From the IMG/VR virus record IMGVR_UViG_3300035701_000002: a stretch of 64,000 bases of DNA; one strand, given 5' to 3'. The DNA is from a virus. The notes under the pieces were generated by a model that was not told where the DNA came from, ran no database searches, and was given only the letters and a program-made list of their open reading frames with translations. Positions 6,382 through 35,882 of this stretch are shown here, one piece after another (positions within the stretch are counted from its first letter, which is position 1; every line of letters begins with the position of its first letter). A program made the position numbers and the translations under genes.

Positions 6382-6825
6382 ATGACCAAAATCTGTCCGA
6401 AGTGCGAAATTCGAAAGTCTCTCTCAGACTTCTTCAGAAACTCTTCCAAAAAAGACGGGCTGCAGGCAATATGTAAAAAGTGCGTCGGCCAGAACTCATC
6501 AAGCTACTACGACAAGAACAAAGACAGCCTAAAGTTGTCTATTGAAAAAAGTAGACTGAAGAGGGCGAAAGAGAACAAAGAGTACGTCCTGAAACACCTG
6601 AAGTCAAACCCGTGCGTCGACTGTGGAGAGAAAGACCCTTTGGTTCTCGACTTCGATCATGTGCGCGGGACTAAGAAGATGAACGTAGCAGCCATGATTC
6701 AGAGGGGAAACTCCGTTCAAGCCATCGAGGATGAGATAAAGAAGTGTGACGTCAGGTGTTCCAACTGTCACAGGCGCAAGACGGCCAAGCATCAGGGATG
6801 GTTCAAGGTAACATCGACCTTGTGA
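6382..6825 (+). CDS. HNH homing endonuclease (low-GC island)
   Basis: 147-aa plus-strand ORF with about 46% GC against about 67% background. N-terminal CPKC...CKKC zinc finger. HNH motif CVDCGEKDPLVLDFDHVRG...N...CDVRCSNCHRRK (DH, N, CxxCH). Confidence 0.8.
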   Translation: MTKICPKCEIRKSLSDFFRNSSKKDGLQAICKKCVGQNSSSYYDKNKDSLKLSIEKSRLKRAKENKEYVLKHLKSNPCVDCGEKDPLVLDFDHVRGTKKMNVAAMIQRGNSVQAIEDEIKKCDVRCSNCHRRKTAKHQGWFKVTSTL

Positions 6826-8318: not shown

Positions 8319-8570
8319 TCAGGGGGCGGGGCGAACCCATATCTCGAACGGCCCGTACTCGATCTCCACCATGAGCTTCTCGTTCGGGGGCACCGGGCCA
8401 GAGTTGCACACGGAGCTGAAGCAGCCCAACGGTTCCCCGGACTTGACGCCCTCGACGAGGTCCTCCACGACCTTCCGGTACACGTCTGCGCTCACGGACA
8501 TCTCGGTGGTCTCGCCGTCATCGTACGACTTCAGGAGAGCGCGGAGGTACTCGACGCTGACGGTGCCCAT
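8319..8570 (-). CDS. hypothetical small protein
   Basis: 83-aa ORF between the AAA ATPase and the next gene, with a 1-nt start/stop overlap at 8570. Confidence 0.45.
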   Translation of the reverse strand: MGTVSVEYLRALLKSYDDGETTEMSVSADVYRKVVEDLVEGVKSGEPLGCFSSVCNSGPVPPNEKLMVEIEYGPFEIWVRPAP

Positions 8571-9163
8571 CAGTCGTCCTCGTCCTTGCGGGCGGGGAGC
8601 TCCTTCAGGCGTGTCATGAGGTCCGGCTGGGTGAGCTTCTTCATGACCGCGTCCATGCCGGTCACCATGGCCTTGAGGCCCTGATCGCGCATCCGGCCCG
8701 GATCAATCTTGGACCGCGTGTCCTCGAGGCGCCGGATTCCGTTGTGAATGCGGCGCTTGTTCTGAAGAAAGTCGGTCCCGGCGACGTCGTCGTCGTCGAC
8801 GGTGGCCCGGATGCCGAGCTCCTGGTCGCGGGGGGCCGCGACGGACCTCCGGCCATAGCGGTCCCAGAGGGACCGTTTGATCGCCCCGATCTTCTTCCGG
8901 ATCATGACGACCTCGGGCGAGTCCGGGCCGGGAACCCTCGGCCTGATGATCGCATGCTTCGCGATCCAGGTGTACGGGACAAAGCGCATCGGCATGTGCT
9001 GTGCCGCCCAGTCCAAGAACTGGGCGGCACGATCCACCTCGTTGAGGGAATGATCGGGGACGAAGTCGCTGAACGAGGCGGACGCCGGTCGCGAACGCCC
9101 CCTGACGGGCTCGGTGTTGCGCGGTTTGCTAGCGGCCTTCATGATTTCTGTCTCCGTTCTCAT
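8570..9163 (-). CDS. hypothetical protein
   Basis: 197-aa ORF with protein-like composition. Confidence 0.5.
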   Translation of the reverse strand: MRTETEIMKAASKPRNTEPVRGRSRPASASFSDFVPDHSLNEVDRAAQFLDWAAQHMPMRFVPYTWIAKHAIIRPRVPGPDSPEVVMIRKKIGAIKRSLWDRYGRRSVAAPRDQELGIRATVDDDDVAGTDFLQNKRRIHNGIRRLEDTRSKIDPGRMRDQGLKAMVTGMDAVMKKLTQPDLMTRLKELPARKDEDD

Positions 9164-10106
9164 TCTTCAGTCCTTCCGCATACTTCTCCAGGACGGCGTA
9201 CGACTCGATCACAGCCTGATACTCTGACTGCGCGCTGTGCGACCCGTTGTTCCGGTCGGGGTGCAGCGGGCCTGCTCTCTTGAGCATCGTACGCTTGCAG
9301 AACCTGAGATCTACGGCATGCCCGTACACGTACGGGAGGTTCAGGACCTCGCACGCATGCCTGAAATGCTCGCGCGTGACCCTCTGCCTCCGGACGTCCT
9401 TCCGGGCGACCGACCTGGAGGCGGTGACGCGGCGCCTGAGGTCCTCGGCGGCCTCGCGCACATAGCTTAGGAAGTCGTCCTTCGCAATCCGAAGGTTGAG
9501 GGCCTCGTCAGCGTCAGGATCGGCGAGGCTAGAAAGGACATAACTGTCGGCCAGGGACATGAGCTCGGAGAGAAACTTCTTCGACCGGGAGTTCTGGGAC
9601 GACGATCCGTCGAAGTTGTAGTCCTTGGGACGGTCGGACGGCCCCGGAACGGACGGGGGGTCAGAAGGACGAGGGGTACGGCCGCCGGGGCCGGACTTCC
9701 GGAAGACCTTCCCTTCCGGGGAACGCGCCATGTACCCCAGAGAGTTGTACCCGTCGATCACGGACCTGACGGCGTCCTCGTGGGTGGCCTGCCCGGAGGT
9801 AACGATCTTGCGGGCGTCCCTGAAGAGGCGGATGACGGTGTACAGCGAGGCGCCGGAGTCCGCCATGCCCCAGAAGGGATCCGCCCAGGCACCAGCCCCG
9901 ATGAGATTGCTGCGGTGCTCATACTCGGCGGACGTCCCGCCGAGAGCGGAAGCGAGCCATTCCCTCCTGTCCCCCTTGGGGACGTCCGGGCCGAGAGAAG
10001 AATAGTGGACCGCCCAGATCCTCCTCTCGGACTCAGCCTTCTGCTTCTCGCTCATGGCGCCGCACTCGCTCTTGTAGGCGGCCACGAGCTTGTCGAGCTC
10101 ATTCAT
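9129..10106 (-). CDS. J-domain (DnaJ-like) containing protein
   Basis: The C-terminus LKRAGPLHPDRNNGSHSAQSEYQAVIESYAVLEKY matches the J-domain helix II - HPD loop - helix III pattern (KYHPDRNPG...EAYEVL). Confidence 0.55.
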   Translation of the reverse strand: MNELDKLVAAYKSECGAMSEKQKAESERRIWAVHYSSLGPDVPKGDRREWLASALGGTSAEYEHRSNLIGAGAWADPFWGMADSGASLYTVIRLFRDARKIVTSGQATHEDAVRSVIDGYNSLGYMARSPEGKVFRKSGPGGRTPRPSDPPSVPGPSDRPKDYNFDGSSSQNSRSKKFLSELMSLADSYVLSSLADPDADEALNLRIAKDDFLSYVREAAEDLRRRVTASRSVARKDVRRQRVTREHFRHACEVLNLPYVYGHAVDLRFCKRTMLKRAGPLHPDRNNGSHSAQSEYQAVIESYAVLEKYAEGLKNENGDRNHEGR

Positions 10107-11016
10107 CTTCGGACTCCTCGGAGAGGGCGTCGCGGAGGACGCAGATCTCTCCCGAAAGACGTCCGGCCGCCTCGGCGATCCTGGACATGCGATCGGACTC
10201 CATGCGCTCCGCTGCGGACTTCACAGCCCCGACTACCTCCTGCCGGATAGAATTTACAGACGAAACGGCCGACTCCAGCCTCGAGGAGAGGGACGCGACT
10301 TCTTCGCGAATGCCGGAGCTGTCGACGATGGACGGGGGAGCAGGATCGGCAGTCGCGGACTCCATGGACTTCAGCCTCTTGGAGAGGGAAGACTGTCTCT
10401 CCCTGATGGCCACGACCTCGTCCTTCACGAACACGAGGGTCTCGGCCATCTGAACCTGGAGGTCCACGGACTTGGCGAATCTCTCGACCATGAAAGACAG
10501 CAGATCGTAGACCGCGGCAGAGTCGACGCGGCGCGGACGGACGGGGACCTCGGGGGCGACATCGAGCTCGTCCTCTCCCGTCCCAGGACCGACGGCCAGG
10601 TCGGGCTCGGGCTCGAGCTCAGGCTCGAGGGGCGCAGGAAGGACTGCCCCCATGAACTCCGCGACGGCGGACGGCCCCTGAGTCTTGAGTTTTTCCATAA
10701 GGGAGCTCACGAAGAACCGGTTCTTCACCTTGTAGAACGGGGACCACTGGCCGACAGTCCTGCTGTCCATGGCGCCCTTTGCGACGAGGACGTCGAGGAA
10801 GGGGCCGACCCCGTCAAGAACCCCGTCCTCCTTGAATCGCCGATATGCGGCCTCCACGTCCTTGGAGGACCCGTGGGCGGGGACGGTCAGGTGGTCGAGC
10901 CGGATGGGCTCCCCCTTGGCAAGGGAGGAGAGGGCGACAAGGACGACCGCATGGAGATCCTCCCACCAGGACTCGCTGACCGGCTTCATGGAGATCGGTA
11001 CCCCGGCGGGGGTCAA
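10099..11016 (-). CDS. hypothetical protein with C-terminal coiled coil
   Basis: 305-aa ORF with an acidic Pro/Glu linker and heptad-like C-terminus. Confidence 0.5.
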   Translation of the reverse strand: MTPAGVPISMKPVSESWWEDLHAVVLVALSSLAKGEPIRLDHLTVPAHGSSKDVEAAYRRFKEDGVLDGVGPFLDVLVAKGAMDSRTVGQWSPFYKVKNRFFVSSLMEKLKTQGPSAVAEFMGAVLPAPLEPELEPEPDLAVGPGTGEDELDVAPEVPVRPRRVDSAAVYDLLSFMVERFAKSVDLQVQMAETLVFVKDEVVAIRERQSSLSKRLKSMESATADPAPPSIVDSSGIREEVASLSSRLESAVSSVNSIRQEVVGAVKSAAERMESDRMSRIAEAAGRLSGEICVLRDALSEESEDE

Positions 11017-11936
11017 GACTTACGCTCCGGGGGGTACGCGACGACGCGGTCCCTGATGATGGCCGTCTGGGCGTCAGCGCAGTTCAGGAGAAGCCCGAGG
11101 GAAGGGCTGTCCAAGTGCCTCTGGACGTCACGGTAAAGGTCGTACGCACGGACGCGCAAAATCCGAGGGAGGCGACCGCCGCCGGGGGAGGTGCGGAAGA
11201 CCAGAACGCACATGTTGGACCCGCGGCCCTCCTCGGACTCGCTGATATAGCTCATCCTCGCCATGACCGCCGGACGGTATCCGAGGTTCTCGGAAAGGTA
11301 GGACTCGACGGCGTCGAGGCGAGACTCGCAAGCGCCGGCGGCGGCGCGTGCGCGGCCCCTCTCCCTGCCCGAGGCGAAGGTGCACGCAACGACACCCCCG
11401 GGGCGGACCGCCCGGGCGGCCAGGAGGACCCTCTGGAGGGTGGCGGGGGAGACGTGGGAGGTGAAGTCCAGGTATGCGGAGGAGAGAGGGGCGGGGAGGA
11501 GGGGGAGGACGTTCCCGACGTCGGACACGGTGACGGTGACCCCGGGATAGGACTCGCAGAACAGGACCGCGGCGCTCGGGTCAGAGTCGACGGCGATCAT
11601 GGAGGCGTCGGGGACGCCGAGGCCGCGGAGCACGGACGCGTCCCCGCCCTCGCGGGAGCAGAGGAACAGGTGCGGGCCGCCGACGAACAGGGCCTCGCCG
11701 AGGCTGTCGCGGACGGCCTCCCACACCCTGAGGCGGACCGCCTTCTTGGCCCTGGAGTCCCCACGGTATGAGGAGAACCGGGGCATCGGACGGAGTCGGA
11801 CGGGCGAAGGAGGGCGCGCGGCCATGAAGTCGCGGACGGCCTCCATGACGGCGGAGCGGAACTCGTCGAGGACGATGTCGCGGACGAGAGAGCCGGGGGT
11901 CATCAGCGCAGGACTCCGCCGGACATCTCGTAGCAC
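11013..11936 (-). CDS. hypothetical protein (possible Rossmann-fold/methyltransferase-like)
   Basis: 307-aa ORF. The segment GVPDASMIAVDSDPSAAVLFCESYPGVTVTVSDVGNVLP loosely resembles SAM-MTase motifs II and III. The call is weak. Confidence 0.4.
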   Translation of the reverse strand: MLRDVRRSPALMTPGSLVRDIVLDEFRSAVMEAVRDFMAARPPSPVRLRPMPRFSSYRGDSRAKKAVRLRVWEAVRDSLGEALFVGGPHLFLCSREGGDASVLRGLGVPDASMIAVDSDPSAAVLFCESYPGVTVTVSDVGNVLPLLPAPLSSAYLDFTSHVSPATLQRVLLAARAVRPGGVVACTFASGRERGRARAAAGACESRLDAVESYLSENLGYRPAVMARMSYISESEEGRGSNMCVLVFRTSPGGGRLPRILRVRAYDLYRDVQRHLDSPSLGLLLNCADAQTAIIRDRVVAYPPERKS

Positions 11937-12403
11937 TTCCTGAGATGGTCGAACGTCATGTGCTTGGCCGCGGTCCTGTCGGTGCCGGCGGAGACGATCC
12001 GCGGGACCACGCCAGTATCGTCGATCGACGCGATCTCGACGACCCTCTTGGCGACGTTCTTGTTGTACGGCTTCCCGCGCCAGGTCTGTCCGACGGCGAG
12101 GCCCATGTCGCGGGCCGGCTTCGGGAGCCTAGACTGCTCCTTGCGGGCCTTGCGCGTGGCGGCGGCCTTCCTGCCGGCCCTCTGCCTGACGGAAGCCCTT
12201 TCGGCATGCTCGTTGGCCGAGGTCTCCTCGGGGTCGTCCGAGCCGTCGTCCCGGTCCGCGGAGGGTCCGGCGTCCATGAGCTCCTCCATGAGGATGTCGC
12301 GGACGGCCTGGCGAATGTCCTGCCCGACGACCTCACGAACGATGGTGCGGATTGCTTCACGAAGCTTCATGGCTGTCTCCTGACAGCAGCTTACGCCGGA
12401 CAC
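11903..12403 (-). CDS. hypothetical protein
   Basis: 166-aa ORF. An alternative start, MKLREAIR, lies near 12370. Confidence 0.45.
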   Translation of the reverse strand: MSGVSCCQETAMKLREAIRTIVREVVGQDIRQAVRDILMEELMDAGPSADRDDGSDDPEETSANEHAERASVRQRAGRKAAATRKARKEQSRLPKPARDMGLAVGQTWRGKPYNKNVAKRVVEIASIDDTGVVPRIVSAGTDRTAAKHMTFDHLRKCYEMSGGVLR

Positions 12404-12411
12404 GATCCAAT

Positions 12412-13776
12412 TTACGCAGGATCACCCCGGGGAGGGAAACGGTCCAGGTGGATGCCGCGATGGACGCCAACGCTGACGGGATCCGCCTCGACGGCCGGCT
12501 TCATGGAGTCGAGCGCCAGGTCCCTGAGGGCGCCAAGGTCGTCCGCGGTGTCGGAGAGCCGCTTGAGGAGGGCAGCACTGGTGCGAGGACGGGCCGTCCG
12601 GGAGGCAACCTCGGTGCGGAGCGACGCAATGGCCTCGAGGACGGGCGTGTCAGGACGGGAGGGCTGGTGGTGCGAGGACGCTATCGCGGCCGCGAGCTCC
12701 GACACGGCCTTCTTCACGAAGTCATGTCTGGACGACGAGGCCAGGGCCTCGGCCGAGGCAGACTTGTCCAGATCCGCGAGCCTCTTCCTTACGGAGTTCA
12801 GCTGGTGGCCAAGGGCGGAAGTCTCGAGCCCGGCCGCCTCGTGCTTCCTCTGCATCTCTATGGCGGCCTCCTCGGCGGAGGCGACCCCGTCCTTGAGCTC
12901 GTCCACGATGTCCGACAGGCCCTTGACGGTCTTGGCCAGTTCGAGGAGCGTGCTGAGGACCATGGAGTGCGACTTTGCCTGCGCGCCCAGCATCCCGGTG
13001 ATGGAGTCCAGGACGGAGAGGACCGCGGACTGGGCGCCGGCCTCCGGGGCGGAGGCGGGGGTCTGATCCGGCGGAGCCTCGGCCTCGGCCTCCGCGCTCT
13101 CAGGATCGCCGTCGGGCTCCGGGTCCCGGACGGGCTCTATCTCGAGCTGGACCTCGGGGGTGTCCAGGGGGGCCGACTCCGGGAGGGCGTGGTCCATGTC
13201 GCACGGGGAGTCAGGGAAGAGGAGCGTCATGAGGCAGTTGGGGCCCTTCTCCTTCCACTCGTAGATTCTCCGGAGGAGCTCTCTGTCGGCCGCCTCGTAC
13301 ACGACGGGGCTCCCGGAGGCCCGCACGGCGCCGACCTTCACGAGCGCGTCCATGAGCGGAACCTGCCACGTGGGGGTCCATGCGGCCCTCTCCTCGAACT
13401 TGTCGCCCCGCCTGGCCTTGAACAGGGAGGATCTCGACTGGGGCTCCGGGACGGACAGGAGCTTCTTCAGCACCCCGACCGAGACGTCCATCTTGCCCTT
13501 CCTCTCGGCCTCCTTGGCGGCGTACCTTCTGTTCCTCATCTCGGCCTCGCTTGTTCCGAAGGTGTCCGCGACCTCCCCGATCTCGTCCTCGAGAATCGCC
13601 ACGCTCCACAGACCGCCGGAGTTCGATTTCTCGTACATCTCCACGCCGCAGATCCGGCGCGACGAGACGTAGCCCTTCTTCATCATCGCGTCCACGACGG
13701 ACCTCTGGAGCTTCCTCCCGATCGTCCGGGGCCCGCGCGGGCCGCCGTACGCGGGGAAGATCTCGTCCAGGGTCAT
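12412..13776 (-). CDS. hypothetical coiled-coil protein
   Basis: The listed ORF (to 14190) overlaps the upstream gene, so the start was refined to Met-139, MTLDEIFPAYGG. The C-terminal half is strongly helical/coiled-coil. Confidence 0.5.
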   Translation of the reverse strand: MTLDEIFPAYGGPRGPRTIGRKLQRSVVDAMMKKGYVSSRRICGVEMYEKSNSGGLWSVAILEDEIGEVADTFGTSEAEMRNRRYAAKEAERKGKMDVSVGVLKKLLSVPEPQSRSSLFKARRGDKFEERAAWTPTWQVPLMDALVKVGAVRASGSPVVYEAADRELLRRIYEWKEKGPNCLMTLLFPDSPCDMDHALPESAPLDTPEVQLEIEPVRDPEPDGDPESAEAEAEAPPDQTPASAPEAGAQSAVLSVLDSITGMLGAQAKSHSMVLSTLLELAKTVKGLSDIVDELKDGVASAEEAAIEMQRKHEAAGLETSALGHQLNSVRKRLADLDKSASAEALASSSRHDFVKKAVSELAAAIASSHHQPSRPDTPVLEAIASLRTEVASRTARPRTSAALLKRLSDTADDLGALRDLALDSMKPAVEADPVSVGVHRGIHLDRFPPRGDPA

Positions 13777-13877
13777 CGGCAGCTCGGACTGGGCGAGCAC
13801 CGTGGCGGCGTACGCGATGATCCAGCGTCTGGCTTCAAGTCCGGGCACGTGACAGCTTACGCCGGGCGGGACAGGAC

Positions 13878-14369
13878 TTACGGCTTGACGGCCGTCATTC
13901 CCTCGCACGAAACGATCGGCGTCCCGCTCCGATCGGTAAGGCCGGACACGACATGAACATACGTCCTGCCGGTTCCGGCGCGGCCAAGATAGTCCAAAGG
14001 CGGCCCGATGTCGAAGGCCGTCTTGCCGCAAGAGGGGCACTTCAGAAGCGGAATGTCGTCCAGCATCTCCCCCGGAGACCAGTTCCGAACGTCGTGGACG
14101 ACGGAGGAAGACGGGGCCTTCGACGGGACGGCCATCCCGTAGGCGCGGACGAAGGCTTCTCTCTGGAAGACGACGGTGTCGCCGCCGCACAGGGCGTCGA
14201 CCCAGACGGCCCGGTCCGAGGGGCTCGACTTCCAGACCCCGGTCACGCTGAGGATGGCGCCGGGCTGGCAGAACTTCAGGAATCGCGGGTCCTGGAGGGA
14301 ATGCTCCAGGTCGTCGGCCCCGGGCGGGGAGGACCGCCTCCAGACGTCACCTACCTGAGGAAATGGCAT
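13878..14369 (-). CDS. hypothetical protein with CPSCG zinc-ribbon-like motif
   Basis: 163-aa ORF; the ATG at 14369 was verified in the sequence. Confidence 0.5.
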   Translation of the reverse strand: MPFPQVGDVWRRSSPPGADDLEHSLQDPRFLKFCQPGAILSVTGVWKSSPSDRAVWVDALCGGDTVVFQREAFVRAYGMAVPSKAPSSSVVHDVRNWSPGEMLDDIPLLKCPSCGKTAFDIGPPLDYLGRAGTGRTYVHVVSGLTDRSGTPIVSCEGMTAVKP

Positions 14370-14572: not shown

Positions 14573-15496
14573 CTAGGCTGCGAGGACGGCCGAGACGATG
14601 CGCGACCAGTAGAGGTCCTTCATCCGGGCGACCGCCTCGGGCGAGTGCTTCCTGCCCGTGGACGCGGCGGAGATCTTCGCCCTGGTCTCAGGGCTCGCCC
14701 GGTAGACGCGGCGCCTCTCGAGGAGCTCCGGGCGGCTCTGGGCCTCGCGGACGGCGGCCGAGTGCCTGGCCTTCACTTCGGGGTCGGAGAAAGCCTCCTT
14801 CGCCGCGGCGGAGATCCTCTCCTTCACTTCGGGGCGGGCGTTCGCGAGACGGGCGGCCTCGGACTGACGGGCCCTGGCGTCAGGATCGCTGAGGGAGGCC
14901 CTGAGAGACTCGGCGATGCGCTCCCGGTAGGCCGGGTCGTCCTGAAACGCCCGGCGCCTCTCTTGGACGGCGGGGTCGGCCATCACGGACTTCGCGGCGG
15001 CCGATCGCCTGGCCCTGGACTCCGGAGTGTTGAGCGCGGCCTTGGACCTGGCGCGAGCCTCCGGCGTGTGGCAGGCCCCGATGGTGACCGGGTGCTTCTC
15101 ACGGAAGCCGGGGCGGTCCCACGGATTGCGAACGGGGTGCGGCTGGTGATCACCACCAGACTTGAAGTTGAAGCCCTTCTCCGGGTTCGTCGTGTCGAAA
15201 TGGGCTACCCATCGCTTCTCCGCCTCGTTCGCGGAATCGAGGTCATGGCAAACCTCGAGAACCTCGTGCGAGAATGCGTCTTTACCGTAAACGCGAATGG
15301 CGTTCGCAAAGTGTGACCATCCTTTCATCTTTCCGTTTGCGGTGTAGACGTGCTGGTTCCAGCGCTTCAGCATCGTCTTCTTCGTCTGTCCGACGTAACG
15401 ACGCCCGGATTCGGTGTGGATATGACAGTAGATGGTGAATACGACTGAGGCCGCAGATCTCTCCGCGGCCTCACCCGATTTGTTGACTGAACTCAT
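14573..15496 (-). CDS. GIY-YIG homing endonuclease with NUMOD3-like repeats (I-TevI-like architecture)
   Basis: N-terminal motifs FTIYCHIHTESGRRYVGQTK...RWNQHV...N...EKGFN are GIY-YIG-like. The C-terminal half carries repeated SPE(V/T)(K/R)A(R/K)xS units (NUMOD3-like). The gene sits immediately downstream of the sheath gene. Confidence 0.8.
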   Translation of the reverse strand: MSSVNKSGEAAERSAASVVFTIYCHIHTESGRRYVGQTKKTMLKRWNQHVYTANGKMKGWSHFANAIRVYGKDAFSHEVLEVCHDLDSANEAEKRWVAHFDTTNPEKGFNFKSGGDHQPHPVRNPWDRPGFREKHPVTIGACHTPEARARSKAALNTPESRARRSAAAKSVMADPAVQERRRAFQDDPAYRERIAESLRASLSDPDARARQSEAARLANARPEVKERISAAAKEAFSDPEVKARHSAAVREAQSRPELLERRRVYRASPETRAKISAASTGRKHSPEAVARMKDLYWSRIVSAVLAA

Positions 15497-15544: not shown

Positions 15545-18500
15545 TCAAAGTCTGATGCGAACCTGCATCGTAGCCACAATGTACTCGAGCGGGAAGACCG
15601 GGACGTAGATGGCCTCCGCGCGGAGGATCGTCGGGTCGTTCGCGTCGGTGAAGACCGCGAGCCCGGCGACCTTCGCCACGATCTGCTGGTCGATGAGGTT
15701 GCCGAACGCGCCGGTCAGCTGGGTCTCGACGGACTTGATGATGGCCCCGGTGAACTTCTGGCCGATGTACGGGTCGAGGACCTTGCGGATGGTCTGCTGG
15801 ACGAACTGGATCGTCAGCGTGACGGACGGGGTCCTGGTGATGACGGTGTCGGTCCGGGTCGTCAGGCCGTGGCGGATCCGGAGGCCGGTGTCCACCTGCT
15901 CGACGACCGTGACTCCGGAGACCGCCGTGGCGTTCGCGTCGGTCGGATCGAGGAGCCTGCCGAGGTTCTTGAACCCGATGAGGGACCTGCGCGTGATGGG
16001 CGTCGCGACGTCCACCGACGGGTTGCAGGTGGAGCCGGCCAGGGCCGCGGCGGCGTACGAGCCGTCCACGAGCTGGTCGAACGAGTTCCCCTGGTCGTCC
16101 GTCAGGGTGATGACGAACGAGTCGGGGTACGTGACGATCATGAGCTCGGACGAGAGGCCCCGGGCGATGGCCTGGACCCCGAGCGGCGACGTGCCGACCG
16201 CGACGCCGACGATGCCGGTGCGCTCGCCCTCCTGCCTCGGGCTGCTCATGAAGACGCAGTGCTGGTTGAGGTACGAGAAGATCTGCGGGTCGGTGGCCAG
16301 GGGCGTGATGACGTCCGGCTTGACCGAGCCGCTGATCGGCTTCTGCTGCTCGTCGATGGCCGCCACGTAGGACTGGAGGGTCGCCTGCGAGGAGCCCGGG
16401 GCCCTCTGGACCTGCTTCAGCCCGAGGAGGACCGCGCCGTTCAGGAGCGCGAAGCGCGCGCCGAGCGAGAGCGGATTGTCCGGGGTCGGAGGCCCGAAGG
16501 ACTGCTGGATCTTCTTGTTGTCCCGGTAGAGGCCGGTCGCGAGGTCCGTCTTCGCGTAGTCGTACGAGACGTAGTAGACGTCGCCGATCTTCGGGTGCGT
16601 CCCGGACCTCGGGTACGTCGTGAGGACCGCCGCGGTCCCGGGGTTCATGTTGTTCGTGTTGAACACGGTCGTCTCGACGCCGCCGATGCACCTGAGGGGG
16701 ATCGTCCCGTCGCAGGTGAAGGTCTGGCCGACGGCGAGCTTGAAGCTGCCGCCGTTGTCGTAGTCCCCGGCGGTGGCCGGGAGGACCGTGAAGCGGAGGC
16801 CCGTGGTCGCGTCCGTGTAGGTCTGGCCCGGGAACCCGGTCCCGTGGGAGCCTGCGAGGCCGGCCGAGCTGGAGACCGTGTACCCGGCCTGGGCGTTCTC
16901 GCCGACCGCGGAGCTCGAACCCGGGACGATCCCGAGGCCGGTGTCCGTGACGAAGGCAGTGCCTGCGACCGAGGTGAAGGCGATCGTCGAGGTGGACCCG
17001 GTCGACCTCGAGTTGATCTCGAGGTAGTTCCCGAGGCCCGGGACGGGGAGCCCGTACGCCACGGCGAGGGCGCCGAAGGCGACGTTCGCGTTCAGGGCGC
17101 TGGCGATGGCCTTCGCCGTGGGCTGAAGGCGCTGGGCGAGCGCCCCTCCGACGAAGCCGAGGACGTCGTTGGCGGTCCCGGTGCTCTTGATCCCGACGTT
17201 GGAGATCTGAGAGTTGACCCTCGAGGAGAGCCACAGCTGGCCGGCAATGGAGCCCGTGCCCGTGTGGGCGACGAGCTCGGAGAGCGTGGCCGTGGCCGCG
17301 TCGACGAGGTCGTTCGTCCCGTGGACGTGGTAGATGCCCTGGAGCTGGGTCCGGTGGGCGTTGTACGAGCCGAACGTCGTCGCGTAGCCGATGGCGTTCG
17401 CCAGGGCGATGACCGACGCGAGCCCCGCGGGCCCGACCGTGGTCGCGTTCGGGGCGACGATGACGTTCGTCGTGTCCGCCACGGCGTGGTACGCCGTGGA
17501 CGCGAGGTGGACGTTGAGCTTCGCCTTGATCTCGTTGGCGAGGGCCGCGAAGTTCGTGTACGGGCCGCCGGGGCCGTCCGGGACCGTGATCCCGAGGATC
17601 GTGTCCGTGACGTCGTTCACCTTGTGGACGCCCGACTGGAGGTAGTGAGCGTTGATCTTGGCCTTGAGGTCCGTGAGGAGGGCCTCCTCCGTCAGCTGGT
17701 CGACGGCGATGGCGACCGTCTCGGCGTTGACGGTGTCGTCGAACCCGTGGACGCCCTTCTGAAGGAGGTGGAAGTTGTACTTCTCCTTCAGGTCGTGGGC
17801 GAGCAGGATCGCGGTCGGGAGGTCCGTACAGGCCGGGAGGGCCGTCGGATTGACGGTGTCGCTCAGCTGATGGACGCCGGCCTGGGAAAGGTGGGCGTTG
17901 TAGTTCGTGCGGAACTCGTTGATCAGCGTGATGCTGGTGACGAGGTCCGTCGCGTTCGGCGACACGACCGGGTTCACCGCGTCTGCGATGAGGTGGTACG
18001 TGACCGACGGGATGTGGGAGTTGAAGGTCGCCTTCAGGTTGTTCGCCAGGGCGACGAGGTCGGCCGTGTACGTGGCGACGTCCGCCGCGGGGGCGACCGC
18101 GAGGTAGCCGTCGTTGATGGCGGTGACGACGTCCTCCAGGGTGGTGGCCGCGCCGGACGGCAGCGTGACGCCGAAGTCCAGGCCGTCCACGCTCATCTGG
18201 AAGTTGTTGTTCAGGCCGGACGTGATGTTGTACGGAGCGACCTTGGTTCCGACGAGGGTCGCCGGCTGGTTCATCGCGCTGTAGGAGCCGGCCGCCGACA
18301 TGTTCGGGGCGAGCCCGAACTTCGGGGAGCCGTCCGTCTGGCCGCCGGAGGTCGGGACGAGGACGAGGACGCTCGAGGTCAGGCCGTTCGTGAACGACTG
18401 GACGTTCCTGCCCTTGACCTGCAGGAGGGCCTGCGTCCCGTACGAGGTCGCGGAGGCGAGGGCGTTCGGCGCGGTCGAGAGGAACGTCGGGGACCCGTCC

Positions 18501-23905: not shown

Positions 23906-24408
23906 GGGCTACCGACTTTCTCGACCGAGTTGGCGTGGAACCTCGACACCGTCCCGTCCTTGTCGTCCTCGACGTAGAACTCTCCGAAGCTGATCACTTT
24001 CCCTGACATGGCGCGCCCGTTCCGGACGTACCGGGGCATACGGACCGAGTCCCCGACCTTGACGTCCCCGGCGGCACGGATGGACGAGTCCCAGTCGGCG
24101 ACCGGGTGTTCCGGGGACGGGGCGAATGGCAGGTCGTTCGGATGGTAGCAGCAGAAGCCGAGGAAGATGTCCGCCGCGGCGCCGTTGTGCACGCGGATCT
24201 TCTGCTTGACGGTGACAACGTAGTCCTTATATCCGCGCGGATCGTTGTCGGATCCGGAGGACTCTCCGTCCGGATCCTTCTCGATCGTCATGATGCACGG
24301 TCGGGACGAGTACTTCGATATCTTGTACGAGATGGCGTACAGCCACGACTCGTTCTCCTCGCGTGTCCATGCGAGGACCGGACCGCGGACGCTCATGGGC
24401 TGTTCCAT
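23902..24408 (-). CDS. hypothetical protein
   Basis: 168-aa ORF coupled to its neighbours by overlapping start/stop. Confidence 0.5.
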   Translation of the reverse strand: MEQPMSVRGPVLAWTREENESWLYAISYKISKYSSRPCIMTIEKDPDGESSGSDNDPRGYKDYVVTVKQKIRVHNGAAADIFLGFCCYHPNDLPFAPSPEHPVADWDSSIRAAGDVKVGDSVRMPRYVRNGRAMSGKVISFGEFYVEDDKDGTVSRFHANSVEKVGSP

Positions 24409-25412
24409 CAGTCGTCCATCTGGGCGAGGAGGAGGAGGCCCGTGGCGACGGCCGTCATCGGATCGCCGGCGGCGCGGATCTCGGAGATCTGGATGGGGAA
24501 CTTCGAACGGTGGACCTCAAAGCGCTCCTTGAACTTCTCGAGGAAGCCGCCGGCCAGGGACGTCCCGCCGGACACGATGATCGGTATGGGCTTCGGGACG
24601 AGGATCTCGCTCTTGGCTCTGGCGAAATGCTTGATCACGTTGTCGATAGTGTAATCGATCAGGGTCTGGACGAAGAGGGTGATCGCCTCCTCGTCGCGGT
24701 TCTTCGGGGACGTGATGTCAATCCCGCCCTCCTTCAGGGCGCACATCTTGGCGGCCGTGGTGTTAACGGCCCGTCCGGCGCCAGCGTCGATCCAGTCACC
24801 GCCCCGTCCAAGCGAGAACTCGAGCGCGGACATAGCGTTGTACGAAAGGCAGACGTTCGTCATGCCCGATCCGTACGAGATCCCGAGGCCGGAGAAGCTC
24901 TCCTTTCCGCATTCGGAGAAGACGACGGCGAGAGCCTCGTTCGCCGGCTCCGGAAGATAGCCGAGCTCCTTCAGAATCTTGCTGATGACCATCCCGTGGT
25001 AGGTCACATCCGAGTTCGCGACGTCCACGGCCGCGGCCGGGACCGAAAAGCAGCACTTCTCGCCGGACTTCGACGGATCCCCGAGGATCTGCTTCATCAT
25101 GAGGGCGATGACCTGCTGGGCGTCGATCTCGCCGGAGGCGATCAGGCCCCCGGACATGGGGCGGCGGGCCTCGCGATTGAAGATGTTGGCCGTCTCGAGA
25201 GCCTTATCCCCGATGACGAGGAGCTTTCCGTCGAGCTCGACATAGTCCGTCCCGGATAGCTTGAGCATGCGCTTGTGCTCGGGCGGGAGATCGAGGAACG
25301 CGTCCCGGACGCGCTTGTGCTCGATCTTCTTGTTCAGGCGCCTTGCGGCGACGAAGTTCATCGTGCCACAGTCGAGTCCGACCCCGCTGTCTCCGTTCTT
25401 TGACATGGTCAT
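24408..25412 (-). CDS. actin-like ATPase (ParM/Alp/MreB-Hsp70 superfamily)
   Basis: Phosphate-1 motif VGLDCGTMNF near the N-terminus and phosphate-2/adenosine motifs ...IVSGGTSLAGGF. Start refined to ATGACCATG (MTMSKNG) with ACGGAGACC upstream. Confidence 0.6.
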   Translation of the reverse strand: MTMSKNGDSGVGLDCGTMNFVAARRLNKKIEHKRVRDAFLDLPPEHKRMLKLSGTDYVELDGKLLVIGDKALETANIFNREARRPMSGGLIASGEIDAQQVIALMMKQILGDPSKSGEKCCFSVPAAAVDVANSDVTYHGMVISKILKELGYLPEPANEALAVVFSECGKESFSGLGISYGSGMTNVCLSYNAMSALEFSLGRGGDWIDAGAGRAVNTTAAKMCALKEGGIDITSPKNRDEEAITLFVQTLIDYTIDNVIKHFARAKSEILVPKPIPIIVSGGTSLAGGFLEKFKERFEVHRSKFPIQISEIRAAGDPMTAVATGLLLLAQMDD

Positions 25413-25498
25413 GGTCTCCGTAGAGGTATTCAAGTCCGGCTGGACCTTACCGGGCCTAAACATGACGAGGAAGACTCGGGGGCGGAAAGGACGCCCGC

Positions 25499-31223: not shown

Positions 31224-31868
31224 ATGACGGAGACACGCCCATCGGTCCCCTCGTGGTGGCTCTTCCCCTTCAAGCCCGTCAGGGTCCGCGAGTCCATCTT
31301 CGAGTCCATCGACCCTCAGAAGTACATCCTCGAGAAGAAGTACGACGGATGGAGGGCGCTCCTGATCGCCGGTCCGGTGCCGACCCTGTGGACCAGGGAG
31401 AAGACCAGGATCGACATGCCGGACAACCTTCGCCCGCAGATCGAGTCCCTAAACCTCCCCGACGGGACGGTCCTGGACGGGGAGATCTGGACTCCGGAGA
31501 AGAGAGGGGCCTGGCGGCACAACAAGGGAGTGGACTGCAGGCTAACGCTCTGGGACGCAATCCGGTCCGGGAAGCGCGACCTTTCGGCCCTCCCGCTCGA
31601 GGCGCGGCGGACGGAGCTCGAGTCCCTCCTCGGCGCCGGGACCCGGGACGTCGGGATCGTCGAGTGGCTGCCCGCCGACGCGGCGTCGTACGCGACGGTC
31701 AGGGCGGAGGCCGAGTCATTTCGCGAGCAGGCTCAGTCCAGGTCGGGCTTCATCCACGGCGCCGTTCTGAAGAGGAGAGGGTCTCCTCGACGAGATCACG
31801 CTGTCCGGTGCGTCGAGCACGCAGACTGGCTGAAGATTGTCGTGGACGGGATGAACTCCGGCGCCTAG
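31224..31868 (+). CDS. minimal ATP-dependent DNA/RNA ligase-like nucleotidyltransferase (adenylation domain only)
   Basis: Motif I EKKYDGWRALL (KxDGxR), motif III VLDGEIW, motif V HGAVLKRR. AGGGGG lies 5 nt upstream of the ATG. Only 214 aa, with no room for an OB domain. Its 3' end overlaps the UGD ORF convergently. Confidence 0.6.
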   Translation: MTETRPSVPSWWLFPFKPVRVRESIFESIDPQKYILEKKYDGWRALLIAGPVPTLWTREKTRIDMPDNLRPQIESLNLPDGTVLDGEIWTPEKRGAWRHNKGVDCRLTLWDAIRSGKRDLSALPLEARRTELESLLGAGTRDVGIVEWLPADAASYATVRAEAESFREQAQSRSGFIHGAVLKRRGSPRRDHAVRCVEHADWLKIVVDGMNSGA

Positions 31869-33197
31869 GTCGCGGGAGCTGCGCCGGCGTCCGCGGCATA
31901 TGCTGTAGAAACGCAACCCGAAAGAGTCGAAGTCAGACTGATCCCAGACATTCCTTCCGTCGAAGACGGTGATGTCGGGGGACTGCTTCTTGATCTCCTC
32001 GATGTCCGGACTCCTGTACTGGCGCCATTCGGTGCACAGGACGAGAGCGTCCGCACCGGAGGCGGACGCGTATATGTCGTCGCAGTAGGACACCCTGTCG
32101 CCGTACAGGGAGCGGAACTGCTCCATGGCCTGCGGATCGTGGACCGTGACGGACGCGCCGTGCTTCAGCATCTCGTCCACGAGCGGGATGCTCGGTGAAT
32201 CCCGGACGTCGTCGGTCTCCGCCTTGAAGGAGAGGCCCCATACGGTGATGCGCCTCCCTCGAAGATTTCCGAGGCACTTTCGGACAAGCCTGGGGAGGAG
32301 CCTCCTCTGGAAGTCGTTCGCCTCCTTCGCGGCCCTAACGACCCTAAGGTCGTGGCCGGCGGACTCCGCCATGTGGAGGAGGGCCGAGACGTCCTTCGGG
32401 AGGCAGGATCCGCCGTAGCCCGGACCGGGATAGAGGTACTGGGGGCCGATGCGGGAGTCCGCGCCGACGCTCTCGCGGACCTTGTTAATGTCCGCCCCGA
32501 CGGACATGGCGAAGTTCGAGAGCTCGTTCATGAACGAGATTCGGGTGGCGAGGATGGAGTTCGAGGCGTACTTCACGAGCTCCGAAGACTCCGGATCCAT
32601 GACGAAGAACTTCGACGTTCCGGCGAACGGCTTATAGAGCCTGAGGAGGAGGTCCCGGGCGACCGGGCTCTCAGTGCCGATCACGACCCGGTCCGGACGC
32701 ATGAAGTCCTCGCATGCCGTCCCCTCGCGCAGGAACTCCGGGTTGGACGCGACGTGCGCCCACCCTCCCTCGACGTACGAGGCGAGTATTCTGGCGAATG
32801 TCCTTGTCGTGCCGACCGGGACGGTGCTCTTGATGACCACGACCTTCCCGGTATCCCCGGTCTTCCTCATGACCTCGCCGACCGTCCGGGCGGAAGACAT
32901 GACCTGCGACAGGTCGGCAGACCCGTCGTTGGCCTGGGGGGTACCGACGGCGACGAACACGATGTCGGCCATCTCGACGGCCATCGCGACGTCGGAAGTA
33001 AAGTCGATACGGCCCTCCTCAAGGTTGTTCTCGAGAAGGCGGTCCAGGCCGGGCTCGTAGATGGGGAGTACCCCGTCCTTCAGAGAGCGAACCTTGTCCA
33101 CGTTCGTGTCAGCGCACACGACCTCGTTGCCGAATTCGGAAAGGCCGATTCCGGTCACGAGTCCGACGTACCCAGCCCCTAGGATCGTGATTTTCAT
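31716..33197 (-). CDS. ugd: UDP-glucose 6-dehydrogenase
   Basis: N-terminal NAD-binding motif MKITILGAGYVGLVTG, catalytic region GGSCLPKD, and a UDP-binding C-terminal domain. A C-terminal tail of about 50 aa extends past the usual end. ATG at 33197 verified. Confidence 0.9.
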   Translation of the reverse strand: MKITILGAGYVGLVTGIGLSEFGNEVVCADTNVDKVRSLKDGVLPIYEPGLDRLLENNLEEGRIDFTSDVAMAVEMADIVFVAVGTPQANDGSADLSQVMSSARTVGEVMRKTGDTGKVVVIKSTVPVGTTRTFARILASYVEGGWAHVASNPEFLREGTACEDFMRPDRVVIGTESPVARDLLLRLYKPFAGTSKFFVMDPESSELVKYASNSILATRISFMNELSNFAMSVGADINKVRESVGADSRIGPQYLYPGPGYGGSCLPKDVSALLHMAESAGHDLRVVRAAKEANDFQRRLLPRLVRKCLGNLRGRRITVWGLSFKAETDDVRDSPSIPLVDEMLKHGASVTVHDPQAMEQFRSLYGDRVSYCDDIYASASGADALVLCTEWRQYRSPDIEEIKKQSPDITVFDGRNVWDQSDFDSFGLRFYSICRGRRRSSRDLGAGVHPVHDNLQPVCVLDAPDSVISSRRPSPLQNGAVDEARPGLSLLAK

Positions 33198-34744
33198 TTT
33201 GCCACCGGTTTGTCGTTCGAACGGAGGATGAAGCCCGGAAGGGCTCCCTGCCCCATGGAGTGCTCGTACCGGACCCCGGGGGACCCCGGATTGAACGGGA
33301 TTGCGAGCTTCGAGCGGACCTCGCTCTCCACCTGGTCGCGGAGGACCACTATCTGCTCTCCGCTCAGGTGGTCGGTGAAGACATAAGAGTGGTACCCGCC
33401 GGAAGGGTCACCCTTGTAGTAGTCCGCGATCTCGCAGTAGTCCACGTCGTGGGAGTGGAGACGGTCCCCGGACTTCTTGCACGTGTATGTCCAGACGTTC
33501 GGCATGTCCGGATGTGGGACCGCCTCGTCGTAGTACGGAGTTCCGGGATACGTGGTTATGGTGGTGCAGTCGAAGTCGTCCGGGGCCTGCTGTATGAGCC
33601 AGTCGCGGACATCCAGTATCGACTTCTCGGACTCCCCAGGGTGGCCGACGCTCATCAGGGCCTTGACCTTCAGCCCGTACTTCCTGGAGATCTCGACGAC
33701 CTTGTTGTTGTCCTCGAGCGTGGCCCTCTTGTTTATGTTCTCGAGGATGCGAGGGTTGGCGGCCTCGAACCCGCACAGGATCCACCTGAAGCCCGCGCGA
33801 TACATGGACCGGGCCTGCTCCTCTGTGAAGAGCTCGGACTTCACAAAGCCGCGGAGGCGGAACTCGACGCCGAGCCTGGACTGAAGGTCCGCTATGGCGT
33901 CCATGAGCTCAACGATGCTCTTGTTCACGTTGAGCTCATCGTCATACATCATGAAGCCGGTGAAGCCGTACGTCTTGTGGAGGTACTCGATCTCGCCGAC
34001 GATCGACTCGGTGGAGCGAGTCCTGATGCGGCGGAGCATGTTCGAGTTCCGGCCGCCACAGAAGCCGCACCCGAACGGACACCCGAGCTGGGCGATGAGG
34101 GACGTGGCCGGGAACCCCTCGATCGCATATTTGTAGGAGGGGACGTCGACGAGATGGCGGGCGGGGTACGGCGTAGACTCGTACTCCGCGTTTGTCATGA
34201 ACAGGCCGCCCTTCGGGACGTCCGCGTCCACGACCTTCGGAGCTCCGTCCCGCATGGCCTCGAATATGGCGCTCTCGCCGTCCCCCGAGACGAGAACGTC
34301 GAATATGGATTCGAGCTTCTCGAGCGCCTTGTGGGCGCGCCCCGCCCGCCCGGCCTTCTGCTCGAGCTTCACGGCCGAATGGACCAGGGTGACGTGCGGC
34401 CCCCCGGCTATGATCCTGATGTCCGGACGGACCGACCTCAGGCGCTCGGCGATCTTCACCGCAGCCGGGAGCTGGGGGGTCGTGGCCGTTATCGCGACGA
34501 AACGCGACTCCGTGCGGGCGGCCTGAATGGCGGCCACCTCGACGAAATTCTCTATGCCGGACAGGTCAAGGAACTCGACCGGGTGTCCGGCCTTCTCGAG
34601 GGAGGCCGCAACCTTCAGAATCCCGAGGCTCATGAATACGCGCTCGTCCAGAAGGAACAGGGAGGGCGGAGTGACGAGGAGGACTCTGTCGTTCGGCACC
34701 GCACGGGCCGGAGTAGGACGAATGAGGTTGCCTGCCGGAATCAT
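33194..34744 (-). CDS. cobalamin-binding (class B) radical SAM enzyme
   Basis: N-terminal B12-binding-like Rossmann region (RVLLVTPPSLF...). Canonical radical-SAM cluster CPFGCGFC (CxxxCxxC). The start was refined to MIPAGNL (ATGA overlap with the upstream GT stop), so the listed N-terminal 18 aa are probably not translated. Confidence 0.8.
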   Translation of the reverse strand: MIPAGNLIRPTPARAVPNDRVLLVTPPSLFLLDERVFMSLGILKVAASLEKAGHPVEFLDLSGIENFVEVAAIQAARTESRFVAITATTPQLPAAVKIAERLRSVRPDIRIIAGGPHVTLVHSAVKLEQKAGRAGRAHKALEKLESIFDVLVSGDGESAIFEAMRDGAPKVVDADVPKGGLFMTNAEYESTPYPARHLVDVPSYKYAIEGFPATSLIAQLGCPFGCGFCGGRNSNMLRRIRTRSTESIVGEIEYLHKTYGFTGFMMYDDELNVNKSIVELMDAIADLQSRLGVEFRLRGFVKSELFTEEQARSMYRAGFRWILCGFEAANPRILENINKRATLEDNNKVVEISRKYGLKVKALMSVGHPGESEKSILDVRDWLIQQAPDDFDCTTITTYPGTPYYDEAVPHPDMPNVWTYTCKKSGDRLHSHDVDYCEIADYYKGDPSGGYHSYVFTDHLSGEQIVVLRDQVESEVRSKLAIPFNPGSPGVRYEHSMGQGALPGFILRSNDKPVAK

Positions 34745-35853
34745 CTCTTGCGTTTCTCCAGAATGATCTCCTCGAGACGACCCGCAAGGACTGACCACCT
34801 GTGGGCGTTCGCGAGCTTCAGGGACTTCTCCCTGACAGAGTTCTGGAAGACCTTGTCCTGAAGGCCCTTCACAACAAACTCAGCGAACTCGGGCAGCCTG
34901 TCCCTGACGGGGGCGCGAACGGCCGGTATGTGATCCCCGTATATCTGTCCTAGCGAGTCGACCGCCGATATGACCGGTATGGCGCCGGCCGCGCAGGCCT
35001 CCATGGTGGTGACGGAGAACCCCTCCGTGAACCGGATAGTGTCGCACGGATATGCGAGGACCTCGGCCTCGGACATCTCCCTGGCCATCTGCTTTCGGCT
35101 GACGGATCCGACCCTCGCTATGTCGAGGCCGGCCATGCGCCCCATGGAGAGGTCTATATACCTGGCCCTCCTGCCGAATTCGATGAAGTCGGGGATGTCG
35201 TGATGCTCGACAGGGATGAACCTGGAGACCCAGCCGTCCATGTTGTAGAAAACGCGCAGGTGGGCGTGAGGGACGGCCCTCTTGATGGACGGCCAGGCCT
35301 GCATGAGGAGGTGGAGCCCCCTGTCCGGGGACGAAGCGTAGACGACGCGACCGGGGACCTTGAGGGCAGGGTCGTACTGGTTCGGGTCGCACCCGTTCGG
35401 GAGGACGGTCCACTTGTGGGGCGAGGGAGTGTGGGAGCGGATGTACTCCATGTGGGACTGGGACGGGCTCGTGTACACGTCCACGAAGTCGTCGAACCCC
35501 GGACGGCAGTAGCCAAAGTCGTTGAGCTGCTGGTTCACCAGCCGCAGGACGCCGGGGGCGACGGCGCGGAGAACGTCGGGCTCGTTCCACGCGCAGACGG
35601 CGTCATATCCGTAGGACTCGCCGGCGAGGTTTCCGAACTCGCGGAGCGGTACGCCGTCGAACTCCGGGGCGTTGGGGCCCTGGACGAACAGGGACACCTG
35701 GTGGCCCATCCGGGCCATCTCCCTTGCAAAGCATATGCACGAGAGCTCAGAGCCCGTCAGGCCGCGAGGGGAGTCCCAGAGGGTGTTGAAGTCGATGAGG
35801 CGGCCGGCGAGGGTGAAAGGACCGTATACGAAGGCTATTTTTAGTCCTTGCAT
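34741..35853 (-). CDS. GT4-family glycosyltransferase (paralog A)
   Basis: EX7E motif FTEGFSVTTMEACAAG. Start refined to MQGLKIAF by alignment with the paralog at 36619..37764 (MRIAFLL...RGLTGSE...MGH.V.LF). GGTG lies 6 nt upstream. Confidence 0.75.
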   Translation of the reverse strand: MQGLKIAFVYGPFTLAGRLIDFNTLWDSPRGLTGSELSCICFAREMARMGHQVSLFVQGPNAPEFDGVPLREFGNLAGESYGYDAVCAWNEPDVLRAVAPGVLRLVNQQLNDFGYCRPGFDDFVDVYTSPSQSHMEYIRSHTPSPHKWTVLPNGCDPNQYDPALKVPGRVVYASSPDRGLHLLMQAWPSIKRAVPHAHLRVFYNMDGWVSRFIPVEHHDIPDFIEFGRRARYIDLSMGRMAGLDIARVGSVSRKQMAREMSEAEVLAYPCDTIRFTEGFSVTTMEACAAGAIPVISAVDSLGQIYGDHIPAVRAPVRDRLPEFAEFVVKGLQDKVFQNSVREKSLKLANAHRWSVLAGRLEEIILEKRKR

Positions 35854-35882
35854 GACCCACACCTTTTGTGATACGGCATTCG

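Follow-up and report, generated by a model that had tools for sequence, protein, structure and literature searches.

A predicted class C J-domain protein in a conserved gene cassette of an uncultivated jumbo myovirus

Background

The J domain is the part of a co-chaperone by which chaperones of the Hsp70/DnaK type are activated. Large phages sporadically encode J-domain co-chaperones, which are predicted to recruit the Hsp70 of the host (PMC7824862, PMC12619734). DnaJ-domain proteins were noted in jumbo phages by Iyer et al. (PMC7824862), and moraphages encode homologues of both DnaJ and DnaK, with evidence of recent transfer from Flavobacteriales (PMC12619734). Rki (gp057w) of the T4-like phage RB43 is a class C J protein that acts through host DnaK; it is linked genetically to the immediately downstream gene, which is fused to Rki in RB16 and KP15 (PMC3486835). 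The present work concerns a gene, hereafter the J gene, in a stretch of 64,000 nucleotides from the IMG/VR virus record IMGVR_UViG_3300035701_000002. This whole stretch, called the window, has a G+C content (GC) of 65.5%, and almost all of its genes run head to tail on the minus strand. Phage J-domain proteins are already known; the family described here differs from them in the domain order of the J protein, its N-terminal domain, the fixed gene cassette in which it is found and the size of the family.

Results and discussion

A J domain at the C-terminus of the protein

Profile comparisons and a structural model confirm a J domain at the C-terminus of the J protein, its His-Pro-Asp (HPD) loop being intact. 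A profile of 150 family members, whose composition is given below, matches the J domain of E. coli DnaJ among the PDB sequences at E 1.9e-10, and a 17-member profile matches the same domain (1bqz) at E 9.6e-6. In the profile alignments the HPD of the family is aligned to H33-P34-D35 of E. coli DnaJ. All 52 PDB matches obtained at E<=0.001 with the 150-member profile carry the names of DnaJ, Hsp40 or other known J-domain proteins. The Pfam profile PF00226 is matched by 13 of the 17 close homologues (best E 5.7e-8) and by 109 of the 150 family members (best E 5.5e-11); the window protein alone is matched at E 0.0039, its amino acids (aa) 275-308 falling on profile positions 22-55.

The AlphaFold (AF2) model of the J protein has a mean predicted local distance difference test score (pLDDT) of 80.9, which rises to about 90 in the J region. 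Helix I spans residues 245-254, helix II 267-281 and helix III 290-316, with HPD at 282-284. The model contains the helical bundle and the antiparallel hairpin of helices II and III by which a J fold is recognized, and by Foldseek it resembles solved J domains, with a TM (template modelling) score of 0.72 to the J domain of E. coli DnaJ. Helix II, LRFCKRTMLKRAGPL, is basic, with five Arg or Lys residues (R268, K271, R272, K276, R277). R285, N286 and Y296 occupy the positions of R36, N37 and F47 of E. coli DnaJ, three residues established as important by mutagenesis. An earlier reading of the window, made from the sequence only, had placed a J domain at the C-terminus with the HPD tripeptide in its helix II/III context. 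Both claims are borne out by the family profiles and the model, HPD lying after helix II and before helix III. The string quoted in that reading is found in the protein (...MLKRAGPLHPDRNNGSHSAQSEYQAVIESYAVLEKY), and its coordinates for the open reading frame (ORF), 9129-10106, are exact.

The remainder of the protein carries no other DnaJ feature: there is neither a DnaJ_C nor a DnaJ_CXXCXGXG match in Pfam, and no Gly/Phe-rich (G/F) region, while the NCBIfam DnaJ match (17 bits) is confined to the J segment. As the J domain is C-terminal and the G/F region, the zinc finger and DnaJ_C are absent, the J protein is classified on its sequence as a class C (type III) protein, and not as class A or B.

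A large family defined by the N-terminal domain

The J gene has the same codon-position GC pattern as the other minus-strand genes of the window (GC1 0.60, GC2 0.48, GC3 0.83). Plus-strand ORFs overlapping it were rejected on codon-position GC as shadow frames of high-GC DNA. Four parts can be distinguished in the protein (Table 1). In the linker, aa 140-164 have a pLDDT below 50 in the model, and both sequence and length of the linker vary across the family. The two helices of the middle region (171-193 and 199-239) are modelled with a pLDDT of 75-90, and F178 and an EDL/DL-R motif are conserved there. A protein identical to the J protein of the window (P0173) is found on a contig of 203,397 bp.

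A search for close homologues covering 5.8 billion proteins gave 17 homologues, 25-99% identical to the J protein. Their alignment shows little or no variation at R285, R277, L281, E295 and the A-C-E-V-L motif of helix I, and none at HPD. A second search was made with a profile of aa 1-126 only, against 1.84 billion representatives of clusters at 50% identity: 398 clusters were matched at E<=0.001, and 206 of these at E<=1e-10. Among the 150 matches listed, nearly all are 280-330 aa long with the N-domain at the N-terminus. The 150-member alignment used above is composed of the window protein, 16 close homologues and 133 of these listed matches. Of the 150 members, 132 carry HPD at the aligned position; five others are fragments, and 13 have degenerate versions (QRD, RRD, SPD, HxD). 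Members that keep HPD have it about 40 aa from the C-terminus, and the column of D284 holds Asp in all 145 sequences with a residue there. Because the J domain was absent from the query, its co-occurrence with the N-domain is independent evidence, and the sequences indicate that an architecture with this N-domain in front and a J domain at the C-terminus is both ancient and conserved.

Two variants of this architecture were observed. The relatives without HPD (P0053, P0055, P0056, P0064, P0068, P0084, P0086, P0092, P0094, P0095, P0116, P0125 and P0139), which keep the invariant Asp, may be J-like derivatives in the style of Pam16. Other relatives carry two or three N-domains in tandem before a single C-terminal J domain; in the seven tandem members examined HPD lies about 30-50 aa from the C-terminus.

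The family members found here come only from metagenomic contigs, several of them of 100-440 kb. No tblastn match was obtained in 50,697 GenBank phage records for the J protein or for two distant family members. The N-domain has no credible match in Pfam or among PDB sequences with profiles of 15 or 67 sequences, and no cassette protein is matched in PHROGs, PADLOC or NCBIfam apart from the AAA ATPase and the weak DnaJ match. As far as sequence comparison can tell, this is a large and previously undescribed family, with an N-terminal domain of its own and a fixed gene cassette.

A conserved arrangement of three genes

The surroundings of the J gene were compared in ten independent loci: the window and L001, L004, L007, L008, L009, L011, L012, L014 and L015. 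GC in the compared loci ranges from 42 to 65% (five of them measured together), and the related genomes were compared over some 10 kb to each side of the J gene. In all ten loci, hidden Markov model (HMM) searches and hhalign place a homologue of the 197-aa partner gene directly downstream of the J gene, the two most distant homologues having an hhalign probability of 98%. A homologue of the upstream 305-aa protein lies directly upstream in eight loci (HMM); in the remaining two a shorter upstream protein is present, with an hhalign probability of 35-60% and a shared 'aEnliYvRd' motif. In the window both junctions overlap, the J start with the upstream stop (ATGAATGA) and the J end with the partner start (14 or 35 nt). 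Gene order and sequence similarity thus mark the J gene and its two flanking genes as a conserved arrangement.

The partner protein has a winged-helix fold and an isoelectric point of about 10; its profile matched nothing significant among PDB sequences. Neither this protein nor the 592-aa protein described below has a tblastn match in the GenBank phage records. One partner homologue (P0022, OPZ39519.1) is on a 127-kb contig deposited under the name 'Synergistetes bacterium ADurb.BinA166'; this contig probably belongs to a huge phage and reached a bacterial metagenome-assembled genome through binning. The N-terminal region of the 305-aa protein looks winged-helix-like by eye. A homologue search with its alignment gave only seven proteins, all unannotated, and one homologue carries an insert with a weak resemblance to the C-terminal domain of the RNA polymerase alpha subunit (alpha-CTD).

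In some lineages only, the core trio is joined by the genes for the 592-, 166- and 307-aa proteins. The 307-aa protein has a weak Methyltransf_24 match (E 0.042) and conserved EGGDAS, AVDxD and LDFTS motifs; its profile has no significant match among PDB sequences. For the 166-aa protein no family match was found in Pfam or PHROGs. The true start of the 592-aa ORF is probably internal, because its homologues align from about aa 117. The 592-aa and 305-aa proteins are paralogous (hhalign 97.9%, E 4.5e-13), and by eye they have in common winged-helix-like units, an acidic linker, a coiled coil and a C-terminal 'L..ei..LRDL.Ld'. Acidic tails end several of the cassette proteins. The 83-aa ORF between the partner and AAA genes has no tblastn match in the related loci and no family match.

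The wider surroundings differ among lineages. In L001, L004, L008 and L012 the cassette stands among genes of DNA and nucleotide metabolism (RtcB, Dam-type methyltransferase, Mom, RecA, dCTP deaminase, ThyX). The gene of the Dam-type DNA methyltransferase (MethyltransfD12) adjoins the cassette in two distant lineages (L004, 4853-5689; L012, 10173-11342); the cassette of the window includes a methyltransferase-like protein of its own, that of 307 aa. L012, a 159-kb contig, also encodes a separate protein of 240 aa (16771-17493, minus strand), whose Pfam matches are weak for DnaJ and faint for the CXXCXGXG zinc finger; this phage may thus carry two different J proteins.

The neighbouring AAA ATPase

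The sequence-only reading had associated the J gene with an AAA ATPase two genes away in a 'host-proteostasis takeover module'. The distance is right, since the 197-aa gene and the 83-aa ORF intervene. The ATPase has one classic-clade AAA cassette (aa ~225-455) and an N-terminal half of no recognized type; it is Cdc48/p97-like, its closest solved relatives being the D2 rings of Afg2, p97 and VAT (E ~1e-44). A close homologue was found near the J gene in only three of the ten loci, the window, L009 and L007 (L011, of 2.5 kb, L014 and L015 were not searched). The homologues in L007 and L009 are 54-57% identical to it; that of L009 adjoins the cassette, and that of L007 lies at a distance of 5 kb. 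Within about 8-10 kb on each side, tblastn gave no close AAA homologue in L001, L004 and L008, and the called genes of L012 gave no AAA match in Pfam; L008 has only an unrelated AAA protein of the BCS1 type, about 7 kb from the J gene.

The winged-helix partner is adjacent to the J gene in all ten loci and a close AAA ATPase near it in three, so that the proposed module is unsupported: an association of the J protein with the AAA ATPase is at most a feature of one subclade. The comparison therefore corrects a tempting pairing of the two.

Phage origin of the window

By tblastn the sheath protein of the window is 42% identical to a 485-kb uncultured phage, and it matches the annotated sheaths of Tunturiibacter phage Tunturi_5 and of many actinophages, as well as Bacillus phage G gp178. 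Its resemblance to ordinary sheaths is limited to the N- and C-terminal parts, and its identity in L007 and L009 is 60%. The order minor tail protein, tail terminator, sheath, virion structural protein is common to the window and Tunturi_5. Relatives of the J gene are present on contigs of 115, 137, 383 and 436 kb; in a search with a 17-sequence alignment, the 436-kb contig and two more (192 and 83 kb) were found catalogued as viral in IMG/VR. On this sequence evidence we assign the window to a jumbo myovirus. The description of the J protein as phage-encoded agrees with the sheath, the tail terminator, the synteny of virion genes with Tunturi_5 and the relatives in IMG/VR.

Table 1. Features of the window and of one related locus, with their positions (window coordinates unless a locus is named)
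Feature	Position	Strand	Remarks
J-domain protein gene, full ORF	9129..10106	-	325 aa, ATG start
N-terminal all-helical domain, family-defining targeting domain (putative)	9729..10106	-	aa 1-126
Short beta element and disordered Pro/Ser-rich linker	9603..9728	-	aa 127-168
Middle region, two long helices	9381..9602	-	aa 169-242
C-terminal J domain	9159..9380	-	aa 243-316
HPD codons H282 P283 D284	9255..9263	-	CACCCCGAC = CAC CCC GAC
Partner gene, 197-aa basic winged-helix protein	8570..9163	-	acidic C-terminal tail (ELPxRxxDDD); start overlaps J end
Upstream gene, 305 aa	10099..11016	-	acidic linker, coiled coil; stop overlaps J start
307-aa protein, accessory	11013..11936	-	Rossmann/methyltransferase-like motifs; present in 4/10 loci
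166-aa protein, accessory	11903..12403	-	homologues in L001, L004, L007, L008
592-aa ORF	12412..14190	-	larger paralogue of upstream coiled-coil protein; matches in L001, L004, L007, L009
83-aa ORF between partner and AAA genes	8319..8570	-	not conserved
AAA ATPase, 501 aa	6792..8297	-	PF00004 E 5e-22; neighbour, not conserved partner
Tail sheath, 1698 aa	15545-20641	-	tblastn matches to annotated phage sheaths
HNH homing endonuclease	6382-6825	+	phrog_2255, E 4e-35
GIY-YIG endonuclease	14573-15496	-	NUMOD3 motif
Actin-like protein	24408-25463	-	Pfam Volactin (PF25216), E 2.9e-69, full length
Sugar-modification cluster	31716-42453	-	
Collagen-repeat protein, 1226 aa	44460-48140	-	
Collagen-repeat protein, 2989 aa	48137-57106	-	
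Tandem N-domain member	L012 8001-9644		other tandem members: P0030, P0032, P0042, P0043, P0047, P0060, P0078

Proposed function and alternatives

The proposal that we consider probable, on sequence and gene order, is that the product of the J gene serves a jumbo myovirus as a class C co-chaperone, directing host DnaK to a complex that is specific to the phage and possibly bound to DNA. The J domain would dock on ATP-bound host DnaK and trigger ATP hydrolysis, and the N-terminal and middle parts would choose the site of DnaK action. The most probable clients would be the products of the two flanking genes, so that DnaK would assemble, activate or take apart a complex peculiar to the phage. That this complex may sit on DNA is the weakest step of the proposal: hints in this direction are the winged-helix fold of the partner, a ParB/KorB-like fold match of the J protein and the alpha-CTD-like insert in one homologue of the upstream protein. 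Recruitment of host DnaK had also been suggested in the sequence-only reading and would follow naturally from a J domain; no Hsp70 was found in the window or in the fetched loci with an approximate sequence of the nucleotide-binding domain of E. coli DnaK as query. The family offers a concrete handle on the use of the host Hsp70 system by very large phages.

Several points weigh against this proposal. The window protein alone scores 17.7 bits against PF00226, below the gathering score of 27.8; the profile check suggested in the sequence-only reading is thus sub-threshold for the single sequence and significant with the family-level profiles. HPD is lost in 13 of the ~145 full-length relatives, so that some members cannot act through the usual activation of Hsp70. 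The flanking proteins are proposed as clients on gene order alone, and the N-domain is not strongly basic, its median net charge of +1 to +2 being uninformative on DNA binding. A distant AAA or Hsp70 gene may lie beyond the ~10 kb per side covered in the related loci. Lastly, in the subclade of the window the cassette is inside the virion module, beside the sheath gene.

This last location suggests another role, in which DnaK, brought in by the J protein, would help giant structural proteins such as the 1698-aa sheath and the collagen-repeat fibres to fold or assemble, maybe jointly with the Cdc48-like AAA protein. Such an assembly role is a real alternative, though we regard it as unlikely. 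In three loci, those of the window, L007 and L009, the structural module encloses the cassette, with the tail sheath on one side and a virion structural protein on the other; the AAA ATPase is part of the same head-to-tail string of genes, and Iyer et al. predicted a folding or assembly role for the DnaJ-domain proteins of jumbo phages (PMC7824862). However, this setting is exchanged for one of DNA and nucleotide metabolism in L001, L004, L008 and L012, and the AAA gene accompanies the J gene in three loci of ten. Tunturi_5 has the same synteny from sheath to virion protein without the J cassette, and the conserved neighbours have winged-helix folds and not known structural ones. It is quite unlikely, in our view, that the J protein has no client of its own and simply titrates or redirects host DnaK, for example by stabilizing a heat-shock sigma factor. 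Such hijacking has a precedent in Rki, which binds DnaK, is toxic via its J domain and stabilizes sigma-32 (PMC3486835), and it would broadly agree with the 'takeover' of the sequence-only reading. But the J protein has no similarity to Rki beyond the J domain, and its N-domain is conserved over 398 clusters, sometimes in tandem, with the same two neighbours; this conservation argues for a specific binding task rather than simple titration. Takeover of host proteostasis is therefore kept as one possible function, not favoured over client-specific targeting.

A further reading, which we hold to be highly improbable, makes the C-terminus a J-like structural domain without Hsp70 activity, a mere interaction surface as in Tim16/Pam16. 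The degenerate relatives might recall such a case; however, HPD is kept by the window protein and by most relatives, the Asp of D284 is never replaced, and the best sequence match is a bona fide J domain, that of E. coli DnaJ. Returning to a co-chaperone that targets DnaK to specific clients, a more precise version can be sketched, to which we give a low probability. The trio formed by the winged-helix/coiled-coil protein, the J protein with its ParB/KorB-like domain and the acidic-tailed basic winged-helix protein would work on the DNA of huge phages as a bound machine, such as a complex for the origin, for partition or for genome organization, and the J protein would bring host DnaK to the DNA to load, activate or dismantle this machine. 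If true, the J protein would be the counterpart, in a bacterial virus, of the J domain of the polyomavirus large T antigen, and would stand in, as a phage product, for DnaJ at its step in the replication of lambda or P1.

Other features of the window

Mobile endonucleases flank the block formed by the cassette and the AAA gene on both sides. The gene of an HNH homing endonuclease, on the opposite strand, separates the AAA gene from the one that follows. At 47% GC, compared with 65-68% in the flanks, it looks like a recent selfish insertion. On the other side a GIY-YIG endonuclease gene separates the sheath gene from the J cassette, and a homologue of this endonuclease is present elsewhere in L007.

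The actin-like protein is 69% identical in L009. We take Volactin to be an archaeal actin homologue, whose presence in a phage would presumably be unusual. As a stand-in for Hsp70 this protein was rejected, since it is without a substrate-binding domain. Two consecutive genes encode giant collagen-repeat proteins (PF01391 at E 1e-72 and 0; 22-31% Gly), which are probably fibres and which account for the stretch of 70-74% GC at 50-56 kb. Immediately downstream of them in the direction of transcription is a sugar-modification cluster, with a UDP-glucose dehydrogenase, several glycosyltransferases, an NAD-dependent epimerase/dehydratase and a methyltransferase-like protein. No tRNAs were found in the window. 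A scan of the window for promoters and terminators gave sites no more numerous than in shuffled sequence, so that operon boundaries are not definable that way.

Comparison with known systems

With E. coli DnaJ (PDB 1bqz, 1xbl, 5nro_B) the J domain described here shares a basic helix II, HPD with the R-N after it, and the F/Y in helix III; it differs by a longer loop between helices I and II. In the polyomavirus large T antigen an N-terminal J domain is followed by origin-binding and helicase domains, whereas the J protein has no helicase and its DNA binding is suggested by fold resemblance only. This resemblance, to the helix-turn-helix (HTH) of ParB/KorB/Spo0J, is a weak Foldseek match (E-values >0.8), probably to the N-domain. 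No ParB/KorB HTH was matched by the 15- or 67-sequence N-domain profiles among PDB sequences or in Pfam, and unlike ParB the J protein is without an N-terminal CTPase domain.

Rki is, to our knowledge, the only phage J-domain protein studied experimentally. The J protein is like it in being a putative class C J protein of a phage, with an HPD motif, an otherwise orphan remainder and a tie to the downstream gene. The two differ in layout: Rki has 237 aa and an N-terminal J domain (PMC3486835), the present protein 325 aa and a C-terminal one. No PHROG match and no tblastn match in the 50,697 GenBank phage records links the J protein to the Rki family. That family consists of a handful of T4-like phages, while the present one comprises 398 clusters on metagenomic contigs. 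Compared with the DnaJ proteins of jumbo phages and moraphages, finally, the family described here is set apart by an N-terminal domain of its own and by a fixed gene cassette.

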